From the IMG/VR virus record IMGVR_UViG_3300048591_000242, positions 138,180 through 202,179 of that record: a stretch of DNA of 64,000 bases. One strand, given 5' to 3'. The notes beneath the pieces were generated by a model. That model ran no database searches, had not been told where the DNA came from, and saw only the letters and a list, made by a program, of their open reading frames with translations. This document shows positions 12,125-54,822 of the stretch, piece after piece. The position numbers were made by a program, and so were the translations under genes. The stretch is from a virus. Its lineage: Duplodnaviria; Caudoviricetes. The number at the start of each line of letters is the position of its first letter. The first letter of the stretch is position 1.

Positions 12125-12673
12125 ATGAATAGTGAAAAAACAGTTAACATGCACACGGATATAGATGTGGCTAGATACTTATTAGCTACAGAAAACGCCA
12201 AACATATGTTTCTGGCATTAAGGGAAGCCATGTCGCCCTATGGCCAAGTAGATATGACCGTACATTGTGGCATATATACCAACAATGACAATCTGCTAGC
12301 AGCCATGTACAACTTATGTATACCTCTGGATTGCGTAAGAAACAATGAGGGCATAGGCAGTATAGTGTTGACGGTAGATAATAGGATATGCCCTACCTAC
12401 AGATACGATCGTGAGAACAGAGTACTGGTGTTCGATATGGCCCATAACGGAAAACATGTTAAGGTACAAATACCGCCTATTCTAATTATGGGTATGTGCG
12501 TGCGGGATTATCCTAGCACTAGAGTTAGTGTATCTAACTATGGGATAAATGAGTTTATCTCTGTAGCCGGAGATATGGCTATTACTAAATGCCCTGAGAC
12601 CATATACAAAAGAACGTTAATAAAGGGACAGAAGAATTTACCAGATAACGTGGTTTCTATATTCAACAAATAA
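12125..12673 (+). CDS. sspB: SspB-like ClpX adaptor, paralogue 1
   Basis: IPLDCVRNNEGIGSIVLTV...LVFDMAHNGKHVKVQIPPILIMGMCVRD aligns with the SspB core (VPMEYARDGQIVLNI...VRFNARFGGIPRQVSVPLAAVLAIYARE); tail DNVVSIFNK. Confidence 0.7.
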   Translation: MNSEKTVNMHTDIDVARYLLATENAKHMFLALREAMSPYGQVDMTVHCGIYTNNDNLLAAMYNLCIPLDCVRNNEGIGSIVLTVDNRICPTYRYDRENRVLVFDMAHNGKHVKVQIPPILIMGMCVRDYPSTRVSVSNYGINEFISVAGDMAITKCPETIYKRTLIKGQKNLPDNVVSIFNK

Positions 12674-12685
12674 TGAGGTTTTACT

Positions 12686-13243
12686 GTGACTGATAATCTA
12701 CCTTACCTTGAGTGTAACACTGAGCGATACCTAGCCAGCACTATAGCGGCTAAAGATTTATTTATGCATATGCGAAGCATTATGTCCAAGTATGGTACAG
12801 TACATGCCGCTATAAACTGTGGTACCTTTGTGAGTCCAACTGAGTTTATACCGGCGATGACCAATCTTAAAGTACCACAACCATACATAGAAAATCGAAA
12901 TGGTGCCGGTGTCATGATTTTGTCTGTATCAGAAGGCTCGTGCATTCATTACGACTATGATCTGTCTAAACGAGTTTTTGTTTTTAATTTGAGTTTCGGA
13001 GGTGTAGCCACTGTAGTACATATACCGCCTATTTTAATAGTGGGTCTGTATGTTAAAGACCACCCAGCTACTGTATCTACCATATCTACATACTCACGAG
13101 ATGAGTTTATTGGGGTAGCCAACGGTATGGCAGTTGGTATATGTCCAGATGAGGTCTATAGAAATTTGTTTCTACCGGTACATGAACCTGTAGGTAATGT
13201 AGTTAGTATATTCGATAAAAGCAAGGGTAAGCCGTCTAAGTAG
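12686..13243 (+). CDS. sspB: SspB-like ClpX adaptor, paralogue 2
   Basis: VPQPYIENRNGAGVMILSV...FVFNLSFGGVATVVHIPPILIVGLYVKD matches the SspB core including FGG; tail GNVVSIFDK. Confidence 0.78.
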   Translation: MTDNLPYLECNTERYLASTIAAKDLFMHMRSIMSKYGTVHAAINCGTFVSPTEFIPAMTNLKVPQPYIENRNGAGVMILSVSEGSCIHYDYDLSKRVFVFNLSFGGVATVVHIPPILIVGLYVKDHPATVSTISTYSRDEFIGVANGMAVGICPDEVYRNLFLPVHEPVGNVVSIFDKSKGKPSK

Positions 13244-23661: not shown

Positions 23662-26136
23662 ATGGTATACGGCCCATATATAAAGGCCCTATGCCATTTA
23701 GCGTTCGCAGACATCCAAGGAGTTCCCATGGTACGTTATAAGTTCTCGGTATTTTCACATGGATTTACCGTTAGTCTTTTCTATGTAAACGACAAGCAGG
23801 CTATCCTTGAGTTTAGTAAAGACCTAGCTACATTTGAAGAAATGTGGGTACCCAAGCTACGTAGAAAAATAAGAAAGGTAAAGTCTGTGTTTGCAGCAGC
23901 TAGTATGGATAGAATGGAATATAGTTTTCTTATAGCTGACTTTGTACCTTTAATAAAATTCTTAAAGGAAAGAGGCTATACCGATGCGGATATGTCTATA
24001 TATAAACATAACGCCTCAGAGGGTATGCCTATTGAGATTGAATTGGGGGATGGAGTGGCTCCTAAAGATCAAGAACAAAGAGACGTAGTTGAGTTTATCA
24101 ATAGTCCAGACAAAACCAATATTGTTTTAAATCTAAGAACAGGTGGAGGTAAAGCACAACCTTTAGCTTCTAAGATTAAGATACCGGGTGGTTGGAGTAC
24201 TATGGGTGAGATGGAAGTAGGTAAAATTATAACTGCTCCAGACGGTACCCCCACTAAGGTAACCGGTGTACACCCTCAGGGGTTAAAGGGTTGTTATAAA
24301 TTAACTTTTAGCGACGGTAGAAGTTGTGAGGCTGACGGGGAACATTTATGGCGAGTATATGTGAAGGGAGAAGAACTTACTATAGATACCGCTGAAGTAC
24401 ATGGCTTGGTAGGTACAGGTAACGTACTGACCATACCGCTACCTACATCTGAGCACATATCGGAAGTAGAGTTACCCATGGACCCATATGAGCTAGGAAT
24501 TGGTTTAGGAGCTATGGATAATAACCATAAACTACCTACTGGTATAGTGGATTTAGAGGGATATACTCAGCTAAATGGATTAGCTTATGGCGAATATATC
24601 CCTAAACTATATCTACATGCTTCTACCACACAAAGACTAAATTTAGTACGTGGATTAATGGATGCTTGTGGTCACACTGTAACGGACGGCTCTGTTTACT
24701 TTACCTCCAATACCTATACCCTGGCAAAGAACCTTCAATATTTAGTTAGATCACTAGGAGGTTGTGCTAGCTTAACCACCAATACCACCAACAGGTTTGT
24801 AAGAGGGGCTATAAATAGAACTAGCTCGAGCTATAGGGTCTATGTAGAGTACCCTATTGTCACTGAGTTATATAGTTGTAATAGAAAGAAAACCAACTGT
24901 ATGTCTAGAGGCAAATACTTAAATAAGGTAGAGTGTCGTATAGTGAATGTAGAATACATAGGTAGAAAGGAAACTCAGTGTATCTCTGTAGATCACCCAG
25001 ACAAGCTTTACATTACTGATGACTTTATAGTAACGCATAACACGTTTTTGGGATTAAACTCCATAGCTAACTTTAAAGTACGCACGGCATTGATAATGAA
25101 TGCCGGGCACTTTAAGACATGGCAGGATTCCATGTCGTGGGTATACAAGGACGAAAAAAACTACTGTATAGTTAGGGGTAGAGATAATCTTAAACGGCTT
25201 ATAGAGCTATCTATAGCTGGAGAAAATGAGTATAAGCTTATCTATATCTCCATAGCTACGCTTAGAAAGTATATTACTGACTATCTAGCCACAGGGGAGA
25301 CTATAGAGGGGGTACATCCTAGAGAGTTATTTAGTGTATTAGGGGTAGGTTATCGCATAGTAGATGAGGCACATCAATCTATACATGCGATAGCCATACA
25401 AAACATTTTTACTCACGTAAACAAAACACTTTACTTATCTGCTACTTTAGTAACGGAAGATCCGTTTCTACAGAAACAGTATAAGAAAATGTTTCCTTTA
25501 GAAGATCAGTTTAAGAAAGGAGTAACTAACAAACACGCTCGAGGTATTAGTATTACCTATAGGGTAAAGGATAGGGATAAGATTCGCTGTACAGGGGGTA
25601 AAGGCTATAGTCATGTTGTTTATGAACATTGGATTATGTCAAATAAACAAAGACTTAGTAATTACATAGAGATGATAGAAAGTATTTTAACTGAATCATT
25701 CATAAGTGTAAGGGAAGGGAAACAAAAGGCACTTATCTTCTGCAGCACCACTGAGTTATGTAAGATAGTGGCAGATCAGCTAAGAATAAGTTATGGTGAT
25801 AGATTTACCATATCAGATTACGTAGCCAGTCACGATCCGTCTGTACTACACGACAACGATATAGTGGTATCTACACCACTATCGGCAGGTACTGGTGTAG
25901 ATATAGAAGACCTAAGAGTAGCCATATCTACTGTAGCCGTAAGATCCATTCAGCTTAACCAGCAGATGGCCGGGCGATTACGTCCGCTACGTAATCATCC
26001 AAATGTAACACCGGATTACATCTGGCTAAACTGTGGAGATATACCACAGCACTTGCAGTATAACTCAGCTAAGATGGAGCAGTTAGGAAACCATACCAAA
26101 GAGATTAAGTATACCTTTTATAACACTGAAATATAA
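23662..26136 (+). CDS. SF2 DEAD/H-like helicase (phiKZ gp75-like) containing an intein
   Basis: Walker A TGGGK|T split by the intein, VDEAH, LSAT, GTGVD and QMAGRLR motifs. Confidence 0.9.
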   Translation: MVYGPYIKALCHLAFADIQGVPMVRYKFSVFSHGFTVSLFYVNDKQAILEFSKDLATFEEMWVPKLRRKIRKVKSVFAAASMDRMEYSFLIADFVPLIKFLKERGYTDADMSIYKHNASEGMPIEIELGDGVAPKDQEQRDVVEFINSPDKTNIVLNLRTGGGKAQPLASKIKIPGGWSTMGEMEVGKIITAPDGTPTKVTGVHPQGLKGCYKLTFSDGRSCEADGEHLWRVYVKGEELTIDTAEVHGLVGTGNVLTIPLPTSEHISEVELPMDPYELGIGLGAMDNNHKLPTGIVDLEGYTQLNGLAYGEYIPKLYLHASTTQRLNLVRGLMDACGHTVTDGSVYFTSNTYTLAKNLQYLVRSLGGCASLTTNTTNRFVRGAINRTSSSYRVYVEYPIVTELYSCNRKKTNCMSRGKYLNKVECRIVNVEYIGRKETQCISVDHPDKLYITDDFIVTHNTFLGLNSIANFKVRTALIMNAGHFKTWQDSMSWVYKDEKNYCIVRGRDNLKRLIELSIAGENEYKLIYISIATLRKYITDYLATGETIEGVHPRELFSVLGVGYRIVDEAHQSIHAIAIQNIFTHVNKTLYLSATLVTEDPFLQKQYKKMFPLEDQFKKGVTNKHARGISITYRVKDRDKIRCTGGKGYSHVVYEHWIMSNKQRLSNYIEMIESILTESFISVREGKQKALIFCSTTELCKIVADQLRISYGDRFTISDYVASHDPSVLHDNDIVVSTPLSAGTGVDIEDLRVAISTVAVRSIQLNQQMAGRLRPLRNHPNVTPDYIWLNCGDIPQHLQYNSAKMEQLGNHTKEIKYTFYNTEI
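24154..25041 (+). mobile_element. Class 3 intein (296 aa) with LAGLIDADG-type endonuclease remnant
   Basis: Starts AQPL (Ala1), block B GEHLW, block F TQCISV, block G IVTHN followed by Thr+1; W-C-T signature; RGLMDACG motif. Confidence 0.9.
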
Positions 26137-26140
26137 ACCC

Positions 26141-26166
26141 AGGACTAGGGGATATCCTCTAGTCCT
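26141..26166 (+). terminator. Terminator hairpin followed by TATGCTGT
   Basis: AGGACTAGGGG/CTCTAGTCCT stem then TTTTATGCTGT. Confidence 0.75.
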
Positions 26167-26193
26167 TTTATGCTGTATATTGGAGAATTAATT

Positions 26194-26862
26194 ATGATAT
26201 CAATTTGTTTTAATAATAAGATGGTGGCTACAGACTCATTGCACCCAAAAACACCTATAGGGGGTAAAAACTATGGCGCCATATTTACCACGAAATGTGG
26301 AAAATTAAACGGCAACAAAATAATTGCTGTTGCATGCTGTGGAAATATCGTATTAGCTGGCCAGCTACTATACTCATATTTAGGTGACGTAACGCTGTAT
26401 AATACACCTGGAAATGAAGAGGATTTTTCTGTGTGGATCAGTAGAACCTATAAAAGGCTGTTAGGATTTGTCGATAACAGCGAAGTTGTAGTTTTCAGTA
26501 AGGGTACAGAAGGTACAGTTATACATACTTTTGGCATAAGTAGAAACGGTATATCTACGATTAAGGAAATACCTATGACTGAAGATGATATTGGTGTCTT
26601 AGACACATGTATTTATACCTCTGACGATCTAGACGAATATTGCGATAGTAAAGCCAACGTCAAATTACCAACCAACCCACTGGATAGGATGTGGGTTTAT
26701 TCTAAATACCACCAGGGTCGTAATCCTACTATCACATATCTAGAATTTGATACTATGGAACTTAAAACATACTCACCCACACCCGCCATTAAAAGGAAAT
26801 TAACTAAACTTGCAAAAGATACCCTTGAGTTTAGATTAGCTATAATAGAAAATAGAATTTAA
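26194..26862 (+). CDS. Hypothetical protein, possible HslV/proteasome-like Ntn fold lacking the catalytic Thr
   Basis: GGAG SD before ATG 26194; MISICFNNKMVATDS...KIIAVACCGN resembles the phage MTTIAxDGKxLAADS...GxAG family. Confidence 0.4.
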   Translation: MISICFNNKMVATDSLHPKTPIGGKNYGAIFTTKCGKLNGNKIIAVACCGNIVLAGQLLYSYLGDVTLYNTPGNEEDFSVWISRTYKRLLGFVDNSEVVVFSKGTEGTVIHTFGISRNGISTIKEIPMTEDDIGVLDTCIYTSDDLDEYCDSKANVKLPTNPLDRMWVYSKYHQGRNPTITYLEFDTMELKTYSPTPAIKRKLTKLAKDTLEFRLAIIENRI

Positions 26863-26949
26863 TCATGTATTGTATTATATGTAAGTTGCCGTGTCTTAAA
26901 TGCTTTATCGAGTATTTCTAGCAAACGAGACAATAGCACATAACCCGTT

Positions 26950-26977
26950 CTATGGCTAGCTTTAGTGCTAGCCATAG
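26950..26977 (+). terminator. Terminator hairpin
   Basis: CTATGGCTAGC-TTTAGT-GCTAGCCATAG 11-bp perfect stem. Confidence 0.7.
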
Positions 26978-27018
26978 ACACCCTTTATACCGCTTTTTTA
27001 TTTTTGGGGAATGCTGTA

Positions 27019-28041
27019 ATGTATACAGAAATCGTAGCAGAAGAATTAGAATTAGATGCAGCATTGGACTGTTGCTTGGTAAAGTCTAGACTGGTTATGG
27101 GGCTAGAGGATATATTTGAAAGTTTACCTACAGACTGTGACATGGGTAAAACGGTATTGGCTGTGGCGGCAACAAACACTGGCAATACACCCACATATAG
27201 TGCAGAAGGTATTTCCGATTTCCTCGCACAACTGTGGGAGGGGATTAAGAATGTAATGTCTAAGATCTGGGAAAACATTAAGAAATTCGGGGCATGGCTA
27301 CGTGCTGGCGTGTTAAGATTGTTTGGTATGTCCAAAAGTATAAAAGAAGAGGCGGATGGTAAACTTGACTTGGTAGGTCAGATAAAAGCGGAACAGTTAC
27401 AATTTCTTAAAGGGATGGCTGCTTATGACGATGGTATACGCAATGCAATGAATTTAAGTGAGGGTAGAGTGGGTGCCATTATAGATGCTGTTGATGAATT
27501 CAGTAAGAAAGAAATACCTACTACAGAAGAAACTATGGCCAATGCCAGGGCTTTTTTGGATGCTAAAAGAGCAGCAAAGGATGCTAAAGCTATTACCGAT
27601 AAACTGGCCATGGGGGAAATAGAAGTGACATCCACTAAAGATCCAGAATCTGGGGAAGAGACACTGGTTGGGTTTAATTATGTACCTAACAAACCAGCCA
27701 AGGACAGCGATAAGGTTACTAAAATAACCGGTAAGGATATTTCTAAAATGGCTGGAGAAATATCTAAGACAGAAAGTAAGGTCTTAGATATGACTAAACG
27801 ATTAACGGACACCAAATGGGCCGAGGATGCCATTAAGAAAATGGACTCAATGATACGTAGACTGGGTAGTGCGCCGGAAGGTAAAGTAAAACGCTACGTC
27901 GCCAGAAAATCCAGAGAACTATCTAGGGCCATCCAAACAGAAATAAAGCTCAATAAAATAATAGCCGATGACCTAAAAAAGACACTGGATGCATCCATTA
28001 GTGGTTTGGATGGGGCTCTTAAGTCACTCAGCAACAAATAA
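27019..28041 (+). CDS. Internal head protein with prohead-protease cleavage site, paralogue A
   Basis: Acidic propeptide then YSAE|GISDFLAQLWEGIK, typical of the phiKZ gp93-family S/A/G-x-E sites; start refined from 26965. Confidence 0.72.
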   Translation: MYTEIVAEELELDAALDCCLVKSRLVMGLEDIFESLPTDCDMGKTVLAVAATNTGNTPTYSAEGISDFLAQLWEGIKNVMSKIWENIKKFGAWLRAGVLRLFGMSKSIKEEADGKLDLVGQIKAEQLQFLKGMAAYDDGIRNAMNLSEGRVGAIIDAVDEFSKKEIPTTEETMANARAFLDAKRAAKDAKAITDKLAMGEIEVTSTKDPESGEETLVGFNYVPNKPAKDSDKVTKITGKDISKMAGEISKTESKVLDMTKRLTDTKWAEDAIKKMDSMIRRLGSAPEGKVKRYVARKSRELSRAIQTEIKLNKIIADDLKKTLDASISGLDGALKSLSNK

Positions 28042-28072
28042 TAGCCACCAGTAAACTTTGAGGAATGCCGTA

Positions 28073-29077
28073 ATGTATACAGAAGAATTAGAATTAGATG
28101 CAGCATTGGATGACTGCATCGCCAAGGCCAATTTAACTATCGGCCTGGAGAGTGTATTTCCAGATTTACCAGAAAATAGTAAGCTAGGTAGAAAGGTTTT
28201 AGAGGTAGCTTCCATGCATACCGGCATTACACCTACATATAGTGCTGAGGGTATAGGTGACTTTTTAATTAATGTCTGGGAAGGCATTAAAAATGTAATG
28301 TCTAAGATCTGGGAGAGTATTAAGAAGTTTGCTAAATGGGTAAAAGAGTCCATTGGCAATATGTTTGGCAAAATTGACGATAAAAGAATTGATTCAATAG
28401 CCGACAGCGATGTAGTTGTTGAAGTAGAAGAAGCTGCTGAGTTACCAGATCTTGCTAAACTTAAAAAAATGAATGAAGACGTTCTCTATGAAGGTGACGT
28501 TGAAAAGCAAATTGATGCTTTAGAGAAGGTAGATGAAGATCTTACCGATGACGTAGCTGAAGTAATAGAGGCCGGTACCGCTGAAGTAGATAAAGGTAAG
28601 GTAAAAGATCTTAATGAATTCTTTACTAATAACCAGGTAGTAATTGAATCTACTATTGACCCGCACAGTGGTAAAGAAACCAGAAATGCGGTTACTGTTG
28701 TGCCGTTAAACAGAAAAACCAATACGGTTAAAATTAAACGTATGAGTGGTAAGGATTTGGCCAAGATGGCTAAGGACACCAAGTCGCTACAAAAGGATGT
28801 AGAAGACGCAGTGGAAAATCTTACCGACACTAAATGGGGTGAAAAGCGTTTAGCCGATTTGGATAAAATCATTAAACGCATCAGTAAGGCGGGTACCTTA
28901 AAAGCTAAGAGTGTAGTAAAGAAACAGGCTATTACTCTTAGCGGTGTAGTGCGGGATAACCTTAAGGTAAAAAGAGCTATGGCTCGTGACCTATTAGAGT
29001 CATTAGAGGCCCGTATTAAAATAATTGATGGCGCCATTAAGGCTATGGAAGCTGCTGAAAAAGCCGATAAAGAGTAA
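28073..29077 (+). CDS. Internal head protein, paralogue B
   Basis: YSAE|GIGDFLINVWEGIKNVMSKIW; near-identical N-terminus to the upstream gene; GAGGA SD. Confidence 0.72.
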   Translation: MYTEELELDAALDDCIAKANLTIGLESVFPDLPENSKLGRKVLEVASMHTGITPTYSAEGIGDFLINVWEGIKNVMSKIWESIKKFAKWVKESIGNMFGKIDDKRIDSIADSDVVVEVEEAAELPDLAKLKKMNEDVLYEGDVEKQIDALEKVDEDLTDDVAEVIEAGTAEVDKGKVKDLNEFFTNNQVVIESTIDPHSGKETRNAVTVVPLNRKTNTVKIKRMSGKDLAKMAKDTKSLQKDVEDAVENLTDTKWGEKRLADLDKIIKRISKAGTLKAKSVVKKQAITLSGVVRDNLKVKRAMARDLLESLEARIKIIDGAIKAMEAAEKADKE

Positions 29078-29083
29078 CGCATT

Positions 29084-29572
29084 ATGAAATATATTCCGAT
29101 TTTTGATGATACTACGGTAGGTTCTGTATTTGCTGAGCTTTTGGCCTGTCAGAGTGAAGGGGAGACTGAGGCTACTTTAATCTTCAGTGCCCCTGATATG
29201 GGTATGTATATAGGTTTGGCCTTTAGAGACCTTTTATATACCTTTAAGGACACTCTTGCGCTTACGGCGGTAGCCCACATACCCCCTAACCTAAATGAGC
29301 TTGTAGCGATTACAGGGTTGCCTGTAGAGCAGAGAAAGATTACTAAGTCAAATCTAGTAATCTTTGTAAAAGAAACCTGGTTTATCGAAGGCTCTGTTTC
29401 TGAGCAGTACATTACTCATTCAGAAAAGCTTTTAGTAGAAAATAAAATTGTAAAACTAATAAGCGAGTCTTCTAAGCTTACCGAAGAAAACATAAACAAC
29501 CTAATTAAAGACGGTAAGGTTGTTCATGCTAAGGATGCTATAGAGGCAGGGTTATTTGGGAGTACTGTATAA
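29084..29572 (+). CDS. Catalytically inactive ClpP paralogue (ClpR-like)
   Basis: DDTTVGSVFAELLACQSE...GLAFRDLL...HAKDAIEAGLFGSTV follows the ClpP fold end to end, with no Ser at the nucleophile elbow (AHIPPN) and no His (VIFVKE). Confidence 0.72.
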   Translation: MKYIPIFDDTTVGSVFAELLACQSEGETEATLIFSAPDMGMYIGLAFRDLLYTFKDTLALTAVAHIPPNLNELVAITGLPVEQRKITKSNLVIFVKETWFIEGSVSEQYITHSEKLLVENKIVKLISESSKLTEENINNLIKDGKVVHAKDAIEAGLFGSTV

Positions 29573-30069
29573 TGGCTACTAAAAGAATACTTTACATTAC
29601 CGATGACATAGCTTTAGAAAACGGCTATGAGGTAATTATAGGTTTGCGTAAGCTAGAGGCAGAAGACCCTATCTCCCCTATAGTTTTGTTTATAAATTCA
29701 TACGGTGGCAGAGTAGACGTATGTCTGGCTATAGTAGACGTTATGAACGATCTGTCGTGTCCTGTATATACCGTGGGATACGGTCAGGTTATGTCAGCAG
29801 GTGCCTTTATTTTAGCAAACGGCTCTAAAGGTAATAGAAGCTTAGCCCCTAATGCCAGAGTACTACTACATCACCCTAACGGCAATAACGTACTGGGAGA
29901 TACAGACACCGGCATGGCTGTATTCTTAGCCTATCGTGATATGGTAGATGTATTAATAGCAGAAGCTTCTGAAAGAAGTATAGAAGAGGTATCTTCTAAG
30001 ATGTCTACTGACTATTATTTATCTGCTACAGAAGCTGTAGAATTTGGTATAGTAGATACTGTTTTATAG
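29572..30069 (+). CDS. clpP: ClpP serine protease
   Basis: LFINSYGG, QVMSAGA (Ser), LLHHP (His), STDYYLSATEAVEFGIVD (Asp); TAATG coupling to the upstream paralogue. Confidence 0.92.
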   Translation: MATKRILYITDDIALENGYEVIIGLRKLEAEDPISPIVLFINSYGGRVDVCLAIVDVMNDLSCPVYTVGYGQVMSAGAFILANGSKGNRSLAPNARVLLHHPNGNNVLGDTDTGMAVFLAYRDMVDVLIAEASERSIEEVSSKMSTDYYLSATEAVEFGIVDTVL

Positions 30070-30077
30070 CGTATTAG

Positions 30078-30110
30078 GTATAGTCCTCCATATAGAGGAC
30101 TATACTTTTT
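30078..30110 (+). terminator. Rho-independent terminator
   Basis: GTATAGTCCTC-CATATA-GAGGACTATAC plus T5. Confidence 0.8.
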
Positions 30111-30666: not shown

Positions 30667-30698
30667 CTATACACTCTAGGTTGTCCTAGAGTGTATAG
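30667..30698 (+). terminator. Terminator hairpin followed by TATGCT
   Basis: CTATACACTCTAGG-TTGT-CCTAGAGTGTATAG 14-bp stem. Confidence 0.8.
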
Positions 30699-44780: not shown

Positions 44781-45602
44781 ATGATAAGCAAAACACACCT
44801 TGAAAACATCAAGAAAGAAATAAAGGCATACAACGGTGACTCCAGAGCAAAGTGCCTTGTAGTAGCTATGATTATTATGGCTAATGTAAAAGTACAACCG
44901 GCGTCTTCTATACCAGAATCGGTGTCTGAATGGACAGATACTTACTCTAAAATGGTTAAAACTGAATACGATAAGCTAACTACGGCTGTGTACCTAAACA
45001 AAGCTTTAGTAATAGAAATGTGTCGTCAGTTATACAGCATCAGGTCTCTGTTTGCATATAAGCACACAGGGTTAATTTTTGATGATGAAACTATCGTTAA
45101 TGGCATAACTAGTACTAAAGAAGAGGCCGATCGCTTAAATGCAATTCAATCGGATAGTATCGGTTTTCTTTTAGACGCATTAGTCTCTAAGTACTCCAAT
45201 GTCTCGGATACCATTGTCTACATTATGGCAGGTAATGGTCCGGATGCATTTATTAAATCCCCAGATGAAATAAGGGTAGCGGTATCTGAGCTAGGTTTAC
45301 GTAAAGAAGACAGTACCTTTGTTTATCATCACGCCATGCAGTTGCGCTTAGTTAAATATTCCATTACTCAGTTTATTTTGGAAGGCGACTACACCGGCTA
45401 CTTACTGCAGGGTAGATACAGTAATCCGCTGTCTACCGAACTCTTTATGACTGCCTTCAATGAGACTACACTCAAGAAAGAGGAACTTATCTCTGCATTT
45501 GAGATCCTTGAAAGAACCAAAGTAGAATTTCGTAGTAAGTCATTAAAAACACCAACCGAGCTTAGACTGTTAAAGGTAAATCGTTATGGAGCAACTTCCT
45601 GA
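44781..45602 (+). CDS. Conserved virion protein
   Basis: 273 aa in the structural operon. Confidence 0.55.
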   Translation: MISKTHLENIKKEIKAYNGDSRAKCLVVAMIIMANVKVQPASSIPESVSEWTDTYSKMVKTEYDKLTTAVYLNKALVIEMCRQLYSIRSLFAYKHTGLIFDDETIVNGITSTKEEADRLNAIQSDSIGFLLDALVSKYSNVSDTIVYIMAGNGPDAFIKSPDEIRVAVSELGLRKEDSTFVYHHAMQLRLVKYSITQFILEGDYTGYLLQGRYSNPLSTELFMTAFNETTLKKEELISAFEILERTKVEFRSKSLKTPTELRLLKVNRYGATS

Positions 45603-46815
45603 GTATTTTGTAGAAACTGAGTCGGTGCTAGCAAAGATAGCTGAAACTGATATGTTGGTAAGTAACCTACACTGTGTTTACAAATCGGCTCTAGCGGATG
45701 GAGTGAATAGAGATTTGGCTCTATCGCTGGAGTCGATTTGCCCTGAAGCTATACCGAAAGGTCTTTTAGTTCAGTCGTATACGGAGGCTAAATCTACTAC
45801 TAATCTAAATGTTACTTTAGAGGGCATTCTAGTTAGTATAAAGGAAGCTATAGTCAATGTACTAACCTATGTGTATGATGCCATTTTAAAGGCTATACGG
45901 GCCATTATAAAGTTCTTTAGTAAGGAAACTAGTGGTAATGGCAGTCAGTCTCCTAAGGCTATAGCTACAGTGGTGGAGGCGGTAGAGGCTAATACTAAAT
46001 CAGTTAAGGTAGGTAGATTTAAGGTATCTGTTTCTACTGCTACCTATGAAAACAAAAATCACGCCATGCGGTATATAGAAAACGAATACAAGCATCTTAC
46101 CACAAATAAGCAGGCACTTCGGCTATTCAAAGAGACTACTGATCTAATGGTGCTTATTACAAGTCGAATGGATTCCGCTATAGACAATCTTTCTGTTTAC
46201 TCAGAAGAGGAGTATAGTAAGGACAAGTTTGATAAGGTTTTTATGGAGGCCTATACTGGACTCAGAAAACCCATAGAAAAGCTATGGAATTCTGCTCCGA
46301 TAATGGATCTATATAGAACCACAACTAACTATTTCTATACGGTTGGTTTAGATAAAGCTATAAAGCTTCCCCCGGTATCTCCTAAAGATACTGACGTGCC
46401 TAATAATCGCAGAATGCCGCATTCATTATCCATAATGGAGCGCAGAAGGATAATGCTTGCCGGAATGCGAGATACGGCTACCGTCAATAAAGTATCTGTA
46501 AAAGAAATGTTTGAAATGGCGGAACACGGCCTAGATGTAGAATCTTATCCACATGCAATAGCGGATATAGTTAGTCTTTTTGAATCTTTAGAGGGAAGAA
46601 TAGAGAAATCAAAAAATAGCCTTATAAAGAACCGAAGTAAAATTGTTAATAGAAATCCTTTAGTAGCAGAACATCGTGAGTTGATTATGGAAAGTGCCAG
46701 ATATATGGTAATGTTCGGCAGATATCAGGAAGTAACTATTACCATGATGCGTATAGTGCAACATGAGAAGAGAAAGATTCTAGATAACTACAACAACTCC
46801 ATGGTGCCTGCATAA
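45586..46815 (+). CDS. Internal head protein with cleavage site
   Basis: SLE and TLE|GILVSIKEAIV pattern shared with the other head paralogues. Confidence 0.65.
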   Translation: MEQLPEYFVETESVLAKIAETDMLVSNLHCVYKSALADGVNRDLALSLESICPEAIPKGLLVQSYTEAKSTTNLNVTLEGILVSIKEAIVNVLTYVYDAILKAIRAIIKFFSKETSGNGSQSPKAIATVVEAVEANTKSVKVGRFKVSVSTATYENKNHAMRYIENEYKHLTTNKQALRLFKETTDLMVLITSRMDSAIDNLSVYSEEEYSKDKFDKVFMEAYTGLRKPIEKLWNSAPIMDLYRTTTNYFYTVGLDKAIKLPPVSPKDTDVPNNRRMPHSLSIMERRRIMLAGMRDTATVNKVSVKEMFEMAEHGLDVESYPHAIADIVSLFESLEGRIEKSKNSLIKNRSKIVNRNPLVAEHRELIMESARYMVMFGRYQEVTITMMRIVQHEKRKILDNYNNSMVPA

Positions 46816-53589: not shown

Positions 53590-54822
53590 ATGTCAATTCA
53601 AAATATTTTGGCCACAGCTATGGCCGCTAAGGTATCTCAAGAGTCAGAAACAGAAGAAGTGGTTCTGGATGAAGTGTTAATGTCTTTGGATCAGTCTGAA
53701 GATATGGTTGATGCTGAACTCGAACTGTCTGAAGTTGAAGGCGCTTTGGAAATCACAGAAAACACTGAAGTTGCTCTGGAATCTCTGGCTGAAGCAGTTA
53801 TTGCTTCTCAAGAAAACGGTGGCCTGGATGCGCAATCTGCTGCCCTGTTGAATGTTGCTACTGCCGCAATCATGGCTCCTTTTGGTGGTCAGACTTCTTC
53901 ACCAATGCCTGGCATGGAGTCATATGAAGGTGACGGCGGTCGTGCTACTGCTACTCAAGTAGCTTTAGAAGGTATCAAGGAAACTCTGGCCAACATGTGG
54001 GAAACCATCATGCGTCTAGTTACCAAAGCGGTAGAAGCTATCAAGAAGTTCTTCACTGCTAACTTCACGCAGTTAGGTCGTATCGAAAAAGCAGCCAAAG
54101 GTCTGGGTGATAAAGCCGGTAAGTCAAAAGGTGTTCCAAAAGAAAAAGAATTGGAATTCAAAAACGCTGCTGCGCTGAAAAGCGGTTCAAAAGACGACGC
54201 TGGTTTGAATCCTTCTACTATCGCTGGTTTGGAAAAATCAATGGCCGGTAGCTTCGGTGGCCTGGTCTCTTTAACAGACAATATCCTGTCTGTTAAAGCT
54301 ACAGACTACGATGGCATGAAAGTCGCTGTTAAGAAAGCCAACAAAGATGCTGCTGGTACCAAGTTCAATGACATTCCCGCTGCTTATGAAATCGAAGTCG
54401 ATGCACCAAAGGGTGATGATGACAACGGTACCAAATTGTTCTCTTTGAAAGTTAAAGAAGTCAAAGATGCCAAGGGTAAACTGAAAGCACTGGATGCCTC
54501 TACTATCGCTTCTCTGTGTGGTGCTATCGAAAAAGCGGCTCCTGCTATGGCCAAGACGGCTAAGGCTATGGACAAAGTAGTGTCTGATCTGAAGAAAGAA
54601 ATGGACAAAAACGGTTCAGAACTTCTGAAAGAAGCCCGTACCAAAACTGATGCTGATTCCAGTGAAGCAGTTAGCATCAAGCGCGCTATGTCAATGTCTA
54701 ACAAGGCATTCGGTTTAGGTCGCCAGTTAGCGGCATACCAGGTTAAGTATGGCGTTAAAGTATTGGCTGCTTCTCTGCAGTTCGCTAAAGCTTCTTACGA
54801 TAACTTAGAAGTTAAAGCGTAA
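53590..54822 (+). CDS. Major internal head protein (phiKZ gp93-family)
   Basis: Acidic propeptide with ALE, GME and ALE|GIKETLANMWE sites; A/K-rich mature part; strong codon bias. Confidence 0.8.
   Translation: MSIQNILATAMAAKVSQESETEEVVLDEVLMSLDQSEDMVDAELELSEVEGALEITENTEVALESLAEAVIASQENGGLDAQSAALLNVATAAIMAPFGGQTSSPMPGMESYEGDGGRATATQVALEGIKETLANMWETIMRLVTKAVEAIKKFFTANFTQLGRIEKAAKGLGDKAGKSKGVPKEKELEFKNAAALKSGSKDDAGLNPSTIAGLEKSMAGSFGGLVSLTDNILSVKATDYDGMKVAVKKANKDAAGTKFNDIPAAYEIEVDAPKGDDDNGTKLFSLKVKEVKDAKGKLKALDASTIASLCGAIEKAAPAMAKTAKAMDKVVSDLKKEMDKNGSELLKEARTKTDADSSEAVSIKRAMSMSNKAFGLGRQLAAYQVKYGVKVLAASLQFAKASYDNLEVKA

Follow-up and report, generated by a model that had tools for sequence, protein, structure and literature searches.

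Why does a large phage encode two ClpP-like proteins side by side, one of which has none of the residues needed for catalysis? The question is raised by a pair of overlapping genes in a 64-kb stretch of DNA (hereafter the window) at the very end of a 202,179-bp IMG/VR phage record (G000) that carries direct terminal repeats. The source phage is phiKZ-like, and the related phages that carry the pair belong to a marine phiKZ-like clade; a Pfam Tubulin search of the whole record gave no match. A preliminary description of the locus had proposed a translationally coupled dead and active ClpP, likened them to ClpR and ClpP, and tied them to the internal-head genes upstream. Our analysis agrees with the first part of that description, including the ClpR comparison, and argues against the tie to the head genes.

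Layout of the locus and its two ClpP-like proteins

The features of the window on which the argument rests are as follows.

23662-26136, plus strand: UvsW-like SF2 helicase with an intein-like insert, the conserved neighbour 5' of the Clp pair
26141-26166, plus strand: terminator-like hairpin directly after the helicase gene
26965-29077, plus strand: two IP-like paralogues of 358 and 339 aa, with weak similarity to the phiKZ internal head protein
29084-29572, plus strand: ORF1, 162 aa, predicted dead ClpP-fold subunit (ClpR-like), stop codon TAA
29558-29574, plus strand: coupling junction, GGGAG (29558-29562) followed by the ORF1 stop/ORF2 ATG overlap TAATG
29572-30069, plus strand: ORF2, 165 aa, short ClpP with the triad predicted to be intact
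30076-30107, plus strand: terminator-like hairpin, a 13-bp stem followed by a T-run, 7 nt 3' of the ORF2 stop

At the TAATG junction the final A of the ORF1 stop codon is also the first base of the ORF2 start codon, giving a 1-base overlap. A Shine-Dalgarno-like GGGAG, read from the sequence, lies within the 3' end of ORF1, nine bases 5' of the ORF2 ATG. Downstream of the pair, the hairpin at 30076-30107 (dG -23.3 kcal/mol, z -5.0) is consistent with the terminator that had been proposed to end the unit. A scan from 26166 to 30076 found no strong terminator-like hairpin (at least 10 stem pairs) and picked up two plus-strand stems of 5-6 pairs each, suggesting that the five genes from 26170 to 30069 could form one transcription unit, as far as such consensus scans can tell. 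A search for sequencing runs, as a source of expression or habitat data, returned none. Seven terminator-like sites were detected in all, versus 2.9 expected from shuffles. Near-perfect long hairpins with 11-14 bp stems and T-rich tails lie between gene blocks at 26141-26166, 30076-30107 and 30667-30698 (all on the plus strand). We also note that the same putative transcription unit includes a gene for a 230-aa protein (26170-26862, plus strand) that has no Pfam or PHROG match and no homologue across the ten related loci described below; its ESM Atlas model is predicted to resemble proteasome/Ntn-hydrolase subunits (TM 0.60/0.58 to an archaeal PF00227 cluster).

Judged by sequence comparison, ORF2 is clearly a ClpP (MEROPS S14) with an intact catalytic triad. 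It scored 135.1 bits against Pfam CLP_protease (PF00574; cut-off 20.2) and 124.9 bits against the cellular ClpP model NF001368, and it matched E. coli ClpP (1tyf) with an E value of 5.5e-24. Residues Ser75, His100 and Asp147 align with Ser97, His122 and Asp171 of the E. coli enzyme, and the protein covers E. coli mature residues ~23-189, ending without the C-terminal R192.

The relationship of ORF1 to ClpP emerges when its family is taken together. On its own ORF1 was borderline against Pfam ClpP (18.2 bits, with the cut-off at 20.2, and 20.9 bits in a six-frame scan), and a direct BLASTP comparison with ORF2 returned one 14-residue match at chance level, the homology of the two proteins being visible at the profile level only. 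Relatives were gathered through a HMMER search of sequence representatives combined with contig look-ups. The exhaustive HMMER search, which covered 1.8 billion representatives, yielded eight real relatives of ORF1, and a profile search added one more; none came from tblastn of ORF1 and P0008 against the phage collection, from megablast of the region or from two-protein pattern scans of viral contigs. Two candidate members, P0010 and P0014, were rejected as ordinary ClpPs, encoded on short contigs whose context was uninformative, and P0010 was left out of the profile of dead copies. Taken individually, the ORF1 orthologues scored 19.6-41.6 bits against Pfam ClpP. A profile built from the dead copies only matched solved ClpPs with an E value of 7.6e-13 over positions 8-160 of 162, and hhalign of the dead-family against the active-family profile gave a probability of 98% (E 7.7e-14). 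The best matches of the ORF1-family profile are generic bacterial ClpPs.

Structure prediction points the same way. An AlphaFold model of ORF1 made from a 9-sequence alignment reached a pLDDT of 72, with values below 50 in the handle region, and superseded a single-sequence model that was unusable (pLDDT 48). When the alignment-based model was searched with Foldseek, every top match was a ClpP at probability 1.0, with TM scores of only 0.41-0.46 for this predicted fold. ORF1 begins at about E. coli ClpP residue 29 and covers residues ~29-189, and at the positions of the catalytic Ser, His and Asp it has Asn69, Val95 and Gly144. These substitutions mark ORF1, at the level of sequence, as a diverged ClpP homologue without a catalytic triad rather than an active member of the family. 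The preliminary reading of 162-aa and 165-aa ClpP-fold proteins joined by TAATG, the first without the catalytic Ser and His and the second with the full triad, thus agrees with the coordinates, the overlap and the Pfam and profile matches, and can be extended in that the Asp of ORF1 is gone as well.

Conservation of the pair, its missing gate and its docking pocket

We compared the pair across 11 loci: the window, a JGI contig that is 98% identical to it (L004), six metagenomic contigs (L003, L005, L006, L014, L015 and L016) and three cultured Vibrio phages (vB_pir03, BONAISHI and Yong XC31). The phages C-ZP2022 and sm033 also match the dead copy of vB_pir03. In 11/11 loci the active copy directly follows the dead copy, and the two genes overlap by 1, 4 or 8 nt, except in Yong XC31, where they are separated by a 2-nt gap. 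Ser, His and Asp are kept in all 11 active copies and the full triad is found in none of the 11 dead copies. The dead copies are intact ORFs of 162-190 aa and retain the residues aligned with E. coli D78, R111 and G183, the same residues being invariant in the active family. Identity to the window is 46% (dead copy) and 49% (active copy) for L003, and 20-24% (dead) and 31-33% (active) for the Vibrio phages; mean pairwise identity is 29% within the dead family versus 37% within the active family. By this measure the dead copy diverges somewhat faster than the active copy. Even between lineages whose copies are only 20-30% identical, the pairing, the gene order and the overlap have been kept. 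The translational coupling suggested by the TAATG overlap is in line with this conservation, and the analogy to ClpP/ClpR is apt in that dead and active homologues are encoded together at every one of the 11 loci.

In its normal state ClpP does no harm, because its N-terminal gate opens only to an AAA+ unfoldase or to ADEP-type antibiotics. ORF1 and ORF2 both start at about E. coli mature residue 23-29; neither has a propeptide or the axial loops (residues 1-19), as the preliminary description had said, and most of helix A is gone from both. Across the clade the N-termini map to E. coli residues 22-32, with short unrelated N-terminal extensions in three of the dead copies. In ClpP residues 1-19 form the pore gate and make contact with ClpX/ClpA, and their deletion allows isolated ClpP to degrade unfolded proteins (bioRxiv 10.1101/2023.03.01.530711).

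The surface on which unfoldases dock is altered as well. The IGL/IGF docking pocket is formed by L23, L48, F49, A52, Y60, Y62, F82, I90, M92, F112, L114 and L189 (bioRxiv 10.1101/820209). At the aligned positions ORF2 has, in the same order, M1, R, K, A, V, F, D, V, Y, S, A and L; about half of its predicted pocket consists of polar or small residues, and the helix side is charged (L48R, F49K and F82D). The strand side (positions 60, 62, 90, 92 and 189) remains hydrophobic, which counts against a loss of unfoldase docking. Across the 11 active copies 5-9 of the 12 pocket residues are hydrophobic, versus 12/12 in both E. coli ClpP and the ClpP of phage Atu_ph07, and nearly all of these copies have a charged or polar residue at positions 48, 49 and 82. 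This pattern in the alignment argues that the clade has abandoned canonical unfoldase docking. Pfam searches of the whole 202-kb record for AAA (PF00004), AAA_2 (PF07724) and ClpS gave no match, and thus no phage-encoded AAA+ unfoldase was found.

The explanation we favor is that ORF1 and ORF2 are probably subunits of one phage-made ClpP-type core, which would act as an accessory enzyme and not as a head protease. ORF2 would supply the active sites of this core, and ORF1, its synthesis tied to that of ORF2 via translational coupling, would be a ClpR-like structural partner that takes no part in catalysis. Strict co-occurrence, fixed gene order and coupling all suggest that the two proteins co-assemble into mixed rings or a ring pair, and we consider this reasonably likely. 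Counting against co-assembly, ClpP paralogues can build separate homo-oligomers, as in the apicoplast, where ClpP and ClpR are each homoheptamers (PMC7966870). A complex prediction for ORF2 with ORF1 gave a score of 0.02, which the tool itself reports as 'no answer' and which counts neither for nor against binding.

Such a core may also be a constitutively open chamber in which peptides or unfolded chains are broken down with no AAA+ partner involved, as the preliminary description had suggested for an open pore. Loss of the gate, changes in the pocket and the absence of a phage unfoldase lend this indirect support, and we hold ATPase independence to be a serious possibility that falls a little short of an even chance. 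As an accessory enzyme, the pair would belong to the early/middle block of RNA-polymerase and helicase genes in the marine phiKZ-like clade, and its candidate substrates are defence proteins and proteins of the host or of the phage itself. In its fullest form, the proposal is that marine phiKZ-like jumbo phages of one clade combine an active and a dead subunit in a ClpP/ClpR-type chamber of their own that has no gate, works without an ATPase and needs no host unfoldase; we advance this tentatively and think it rather unlikely to hold in every part. If such a self-contained chamber were real, it might allow protein turnover in a compartment or infection stage in which host proteases are not available, or the destruction of host or defence proteins.

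The main rival to this explanation is that the pair forms an alternative proteolytic core that plugs into host ClpX, ClpA or ClpC and so redirects ATP-dependent degradation to substrates chosen by the phage. All characterised ClpP and ClpP/R cores use AAA+ partners (PMC7966870), and the hydrophobic strand side of the ORF2 pocket would still suit one. Jumbo-phage ClpP and ClpS have also been proposed to act on host proteins (Iyer et al. 2021, PMC7824862). A further point concerns two tandem paralogues at 12125-12673 and 12686-13243 (plus strand), which match the SspB-like phage family phrog_8945 weakly (E 7e-3 and 2e-3) and Pfam SspB below the cut-off (E 0.02-0.06). The similarity, if real, would hint at use of host ClpX, but every one of these matches is below threshold. 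Moreover, the N-terminal loops are missing, nearly all of the 11 active copies carry charged or polar residues in place of L48, F49 and F82, and ORF2 ends at residue 189, without R192. We therefore regard docking to a host unfoldase as unlikely, though it deserves to be kept in view.

Less likely again is that ORF1 and ORF2 act separately, ORF2 as a homo-oligomeric peptidase and ORF1 either as a decoy that inhibits host ClpP by capping it or mixing with its subunits, or in a role unrelated to proteolysis. Dead homologues of enzymes are often inhibitors or regulators, and the faster divergence of ORF1 would fit such a role. Strict adjacency, fixed order and the start/stop overlap point instead to co-production of the two proteins, and the N-terminal region is absent from ORF1 as it is from ORF2, so that ORF1 would be a better fit to ORF2 than to a full-length host ClpP. 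We consider separate action improbable and retain the joint ClpP-type core as the more probable explanation of the pair.

Genomic neighbours and the head-protein question

All nine loci with upstream DNA have the same conserved neighbours 5' of the pair: the UvsW-like helicase gene and, ahead of it, split genes for RNA-polymerase subunits. The helicase of the window has a weak LAGLIDADG_3 match at residues 325-377. Its L014 homologue aligns contiguously with window residues 18-266 and 426-815, its L016 homologue with residues 18-164 and 460-816, and its vB_pir03 homologue only from residue 461 on; therefore ~160-295 residues of the window helicase represent an insertion.

The preliminary description had the pair follow two head genes after a 7-nt gap. 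Two IP-like genes, 37% identical to each other, do lie upstream, but the gap between ORF1 and the preceding gene is 6 nt and the matches of the two proteins to phiKZ_IP are sub-threshold (16.5 and 16.0 bits, with a cut-off of 27). These genes adjoin the pair only in the window, L003, L004 and L005, which are the closest relatives, and the adjacency is missing in the seven more distant loci (L006, L014, L015, L016, vB_pir03, BONAISHI and Yong XC31). The clear phiKZ_IP gene of the window lies at 53590-54822 (plus strand; 108.8 bits), 24 kb from the pair. A weak match to the phiKZ internal head protein (19.7 bits) was also seen at 45586-46815 (plus strand).

The genome has a separate protease dedicated to head maturation, outside the window:

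G000:C1:98420-99175 (= L010:1468-2223): head-maturation protease of the gp175/gp21 type, phrog_3014, E 1e-72

This protein is 38% identical to vB_pir03 ORF42, which the authors of that phage matched to T4 gp21 (PMC7765460). A Pfam Peptidase_S77 search of the phage's own genome gave no match, and the head protease was located through vB_pir03 ORF42 and PHROG. The gene that precedes it encodes a virion structural protein (phrog_2926, E 3e-76). ORF2 itself matches phrog_94 (E 8e-16) and scored 44.3 bits against the ClpP-related head-protease model NF045542, for which the cut-off is 120.

The Clp pair is not the head-maturation protease. A head-maturation role as the main reading was rejected on the separate head protease, the low NF045542 score and the restriction of the IP adjacency to close relatives. 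That the pair nonetheless serves head assembly, by processing the adjacent internal-head-like proteins or by being packaged into the virion, is very improbable: a shared transcript with the two IP-like genes is possible given the absence of a strong hairpin from 26166 to 30076, the same genes adjoin the pair in L003, L004 and L005, and ClpP-related head proteases are common in phages, among them phrog_94, but the genome has a dedicated head protease elsewhere, ORF2 scores 44 bits on the head-protease model versus 125 on the cellular ClpP model, the adjacency is missing in seven more distant loci, and the clear phiKZ_IP gene is far away. With the IP adjacency confined to four loci and the conserved neighbours being helicase and RNA-polymerase genes, the functional tie to internal-head genes or packaging that had been suggested for the pair is not upheld.

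Comparison with known systems

As a pair of ClpP paralogues, ORF1 and ORF2 resemble the ClpP1/ClpP2 heterocomplexes of Listeria, Mycobacterium and Pseudomonas aeruginosa, which build one chamber from two paralogues, and the ClpP1/ClpP2 entries 8xon, 4ryf, 9ndj and 6vgk are among the best structural and sequence matches of the ORF1 family. In those systems, unlike the phage pair, both subunits are catalytic or conditionally so, full length and ATPase-dependent. A second likeness is to engineered, N-terminally truncated E. coli ClpP, which has lost its gate and degrades unfolded proteins without an ATPase, as the phage pair lacks the axial loops. The engineered enzyme is a laboratory homo-tetradecamer with its docking pocket intact, whereas the phage truncation is natural, extends beyond the engineered one, to about residue 23-29, and is shared by the two paralogues.

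In organisation the pair parallels ClpR, the name given to a ClpP homologue that has no triad and takes its place beside ClpP in the cores of cyanobacteria, plastids and apicoplasts (PMC7966870). As in cyanobacterial ClpP3/ClpR and plastid or apicoplast ClpP/ClpR, an active ClpP is co-encoded with a triad-less homologue (PMC7966870); unlike those cores, which keep their N-terminal regions and work with ClpC as partner, the phage pair is without the gate and much of the pocket. The triad was probably lost independently in the phage dead copy and in cyanobacterial ClpR.

Among phage proteins, ClpP has been noted in some group 1 and 2.2 jumbo phages, with host targeting proposed (Iyer et al. 2021, PMC7824862). 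The full-length ClpPs of the jumbo phages Atu_ph07 (Agrobacterium) and Va1 (Vibrio) resemble the pair in being accessory, patchy in distribution and separate from the capsid protease (PMC7824862). They differ from it in that each is a single gene, and the Atu_ph07 protein has an N-terminus nearly identical to that of E. coli ClpP as well as a pocket that is hydrophobic at all 12 positions. The ClpP-related phage head-maturation proteases (NF045542; PHROG 94, 2976 and 133) share with ORF2 the fold and the character of a phage-borne serine protease. ORF2, by contrast, falls far below the NF045542 cut-off, lies outside a portal-protease-capsid module and occurs in a phage with another head protease.

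The same module, consisting of an RNA-polymerase beta' subunit, the helicase, the dead copy and ClpP with their overlap, is represented by BONAISHI ORF86/ORF87 and its equivalents in vB_pir03, C-ZP2022, sm033 and Yong XC31; the Vibrio-phage dead copies differ from ORF1 of the window in having C-terminal tails, at 174-190 aa. In the BONAISHI publication a table gives 'Clp protease subunit' for ORF86 and ClpP for ORF87, with no comment (PMC6207643); the vB_pir03 and Yong XC31 annotations call the dead copy a 'hypothetical protein'. The pair is thus not wholly new, as that table names both genes as Clp subunits and jumbo-phage ClpP is known (Iyer et al. 2021). Our searches of the literature on phage-encoded ClpP and on Chimalliviridae ClpP found no study of such a pair, and none on the missing triad or the truncation.

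The presence of the module in the cultured Vibrio phages BONAISHI and vB_pir03 makes these ideas directly testable by biochemistry and phage genetics. A natural gate-less ClpP pair with a rebuilt docking surface and a dead partner would show how an unregulated, or differently regulated, chamber can evolve. The ClpP/ClpR theme, which to date has its examples in cyanobacteria, plastids and apicoplasts, would also gain one encoded by a virus.
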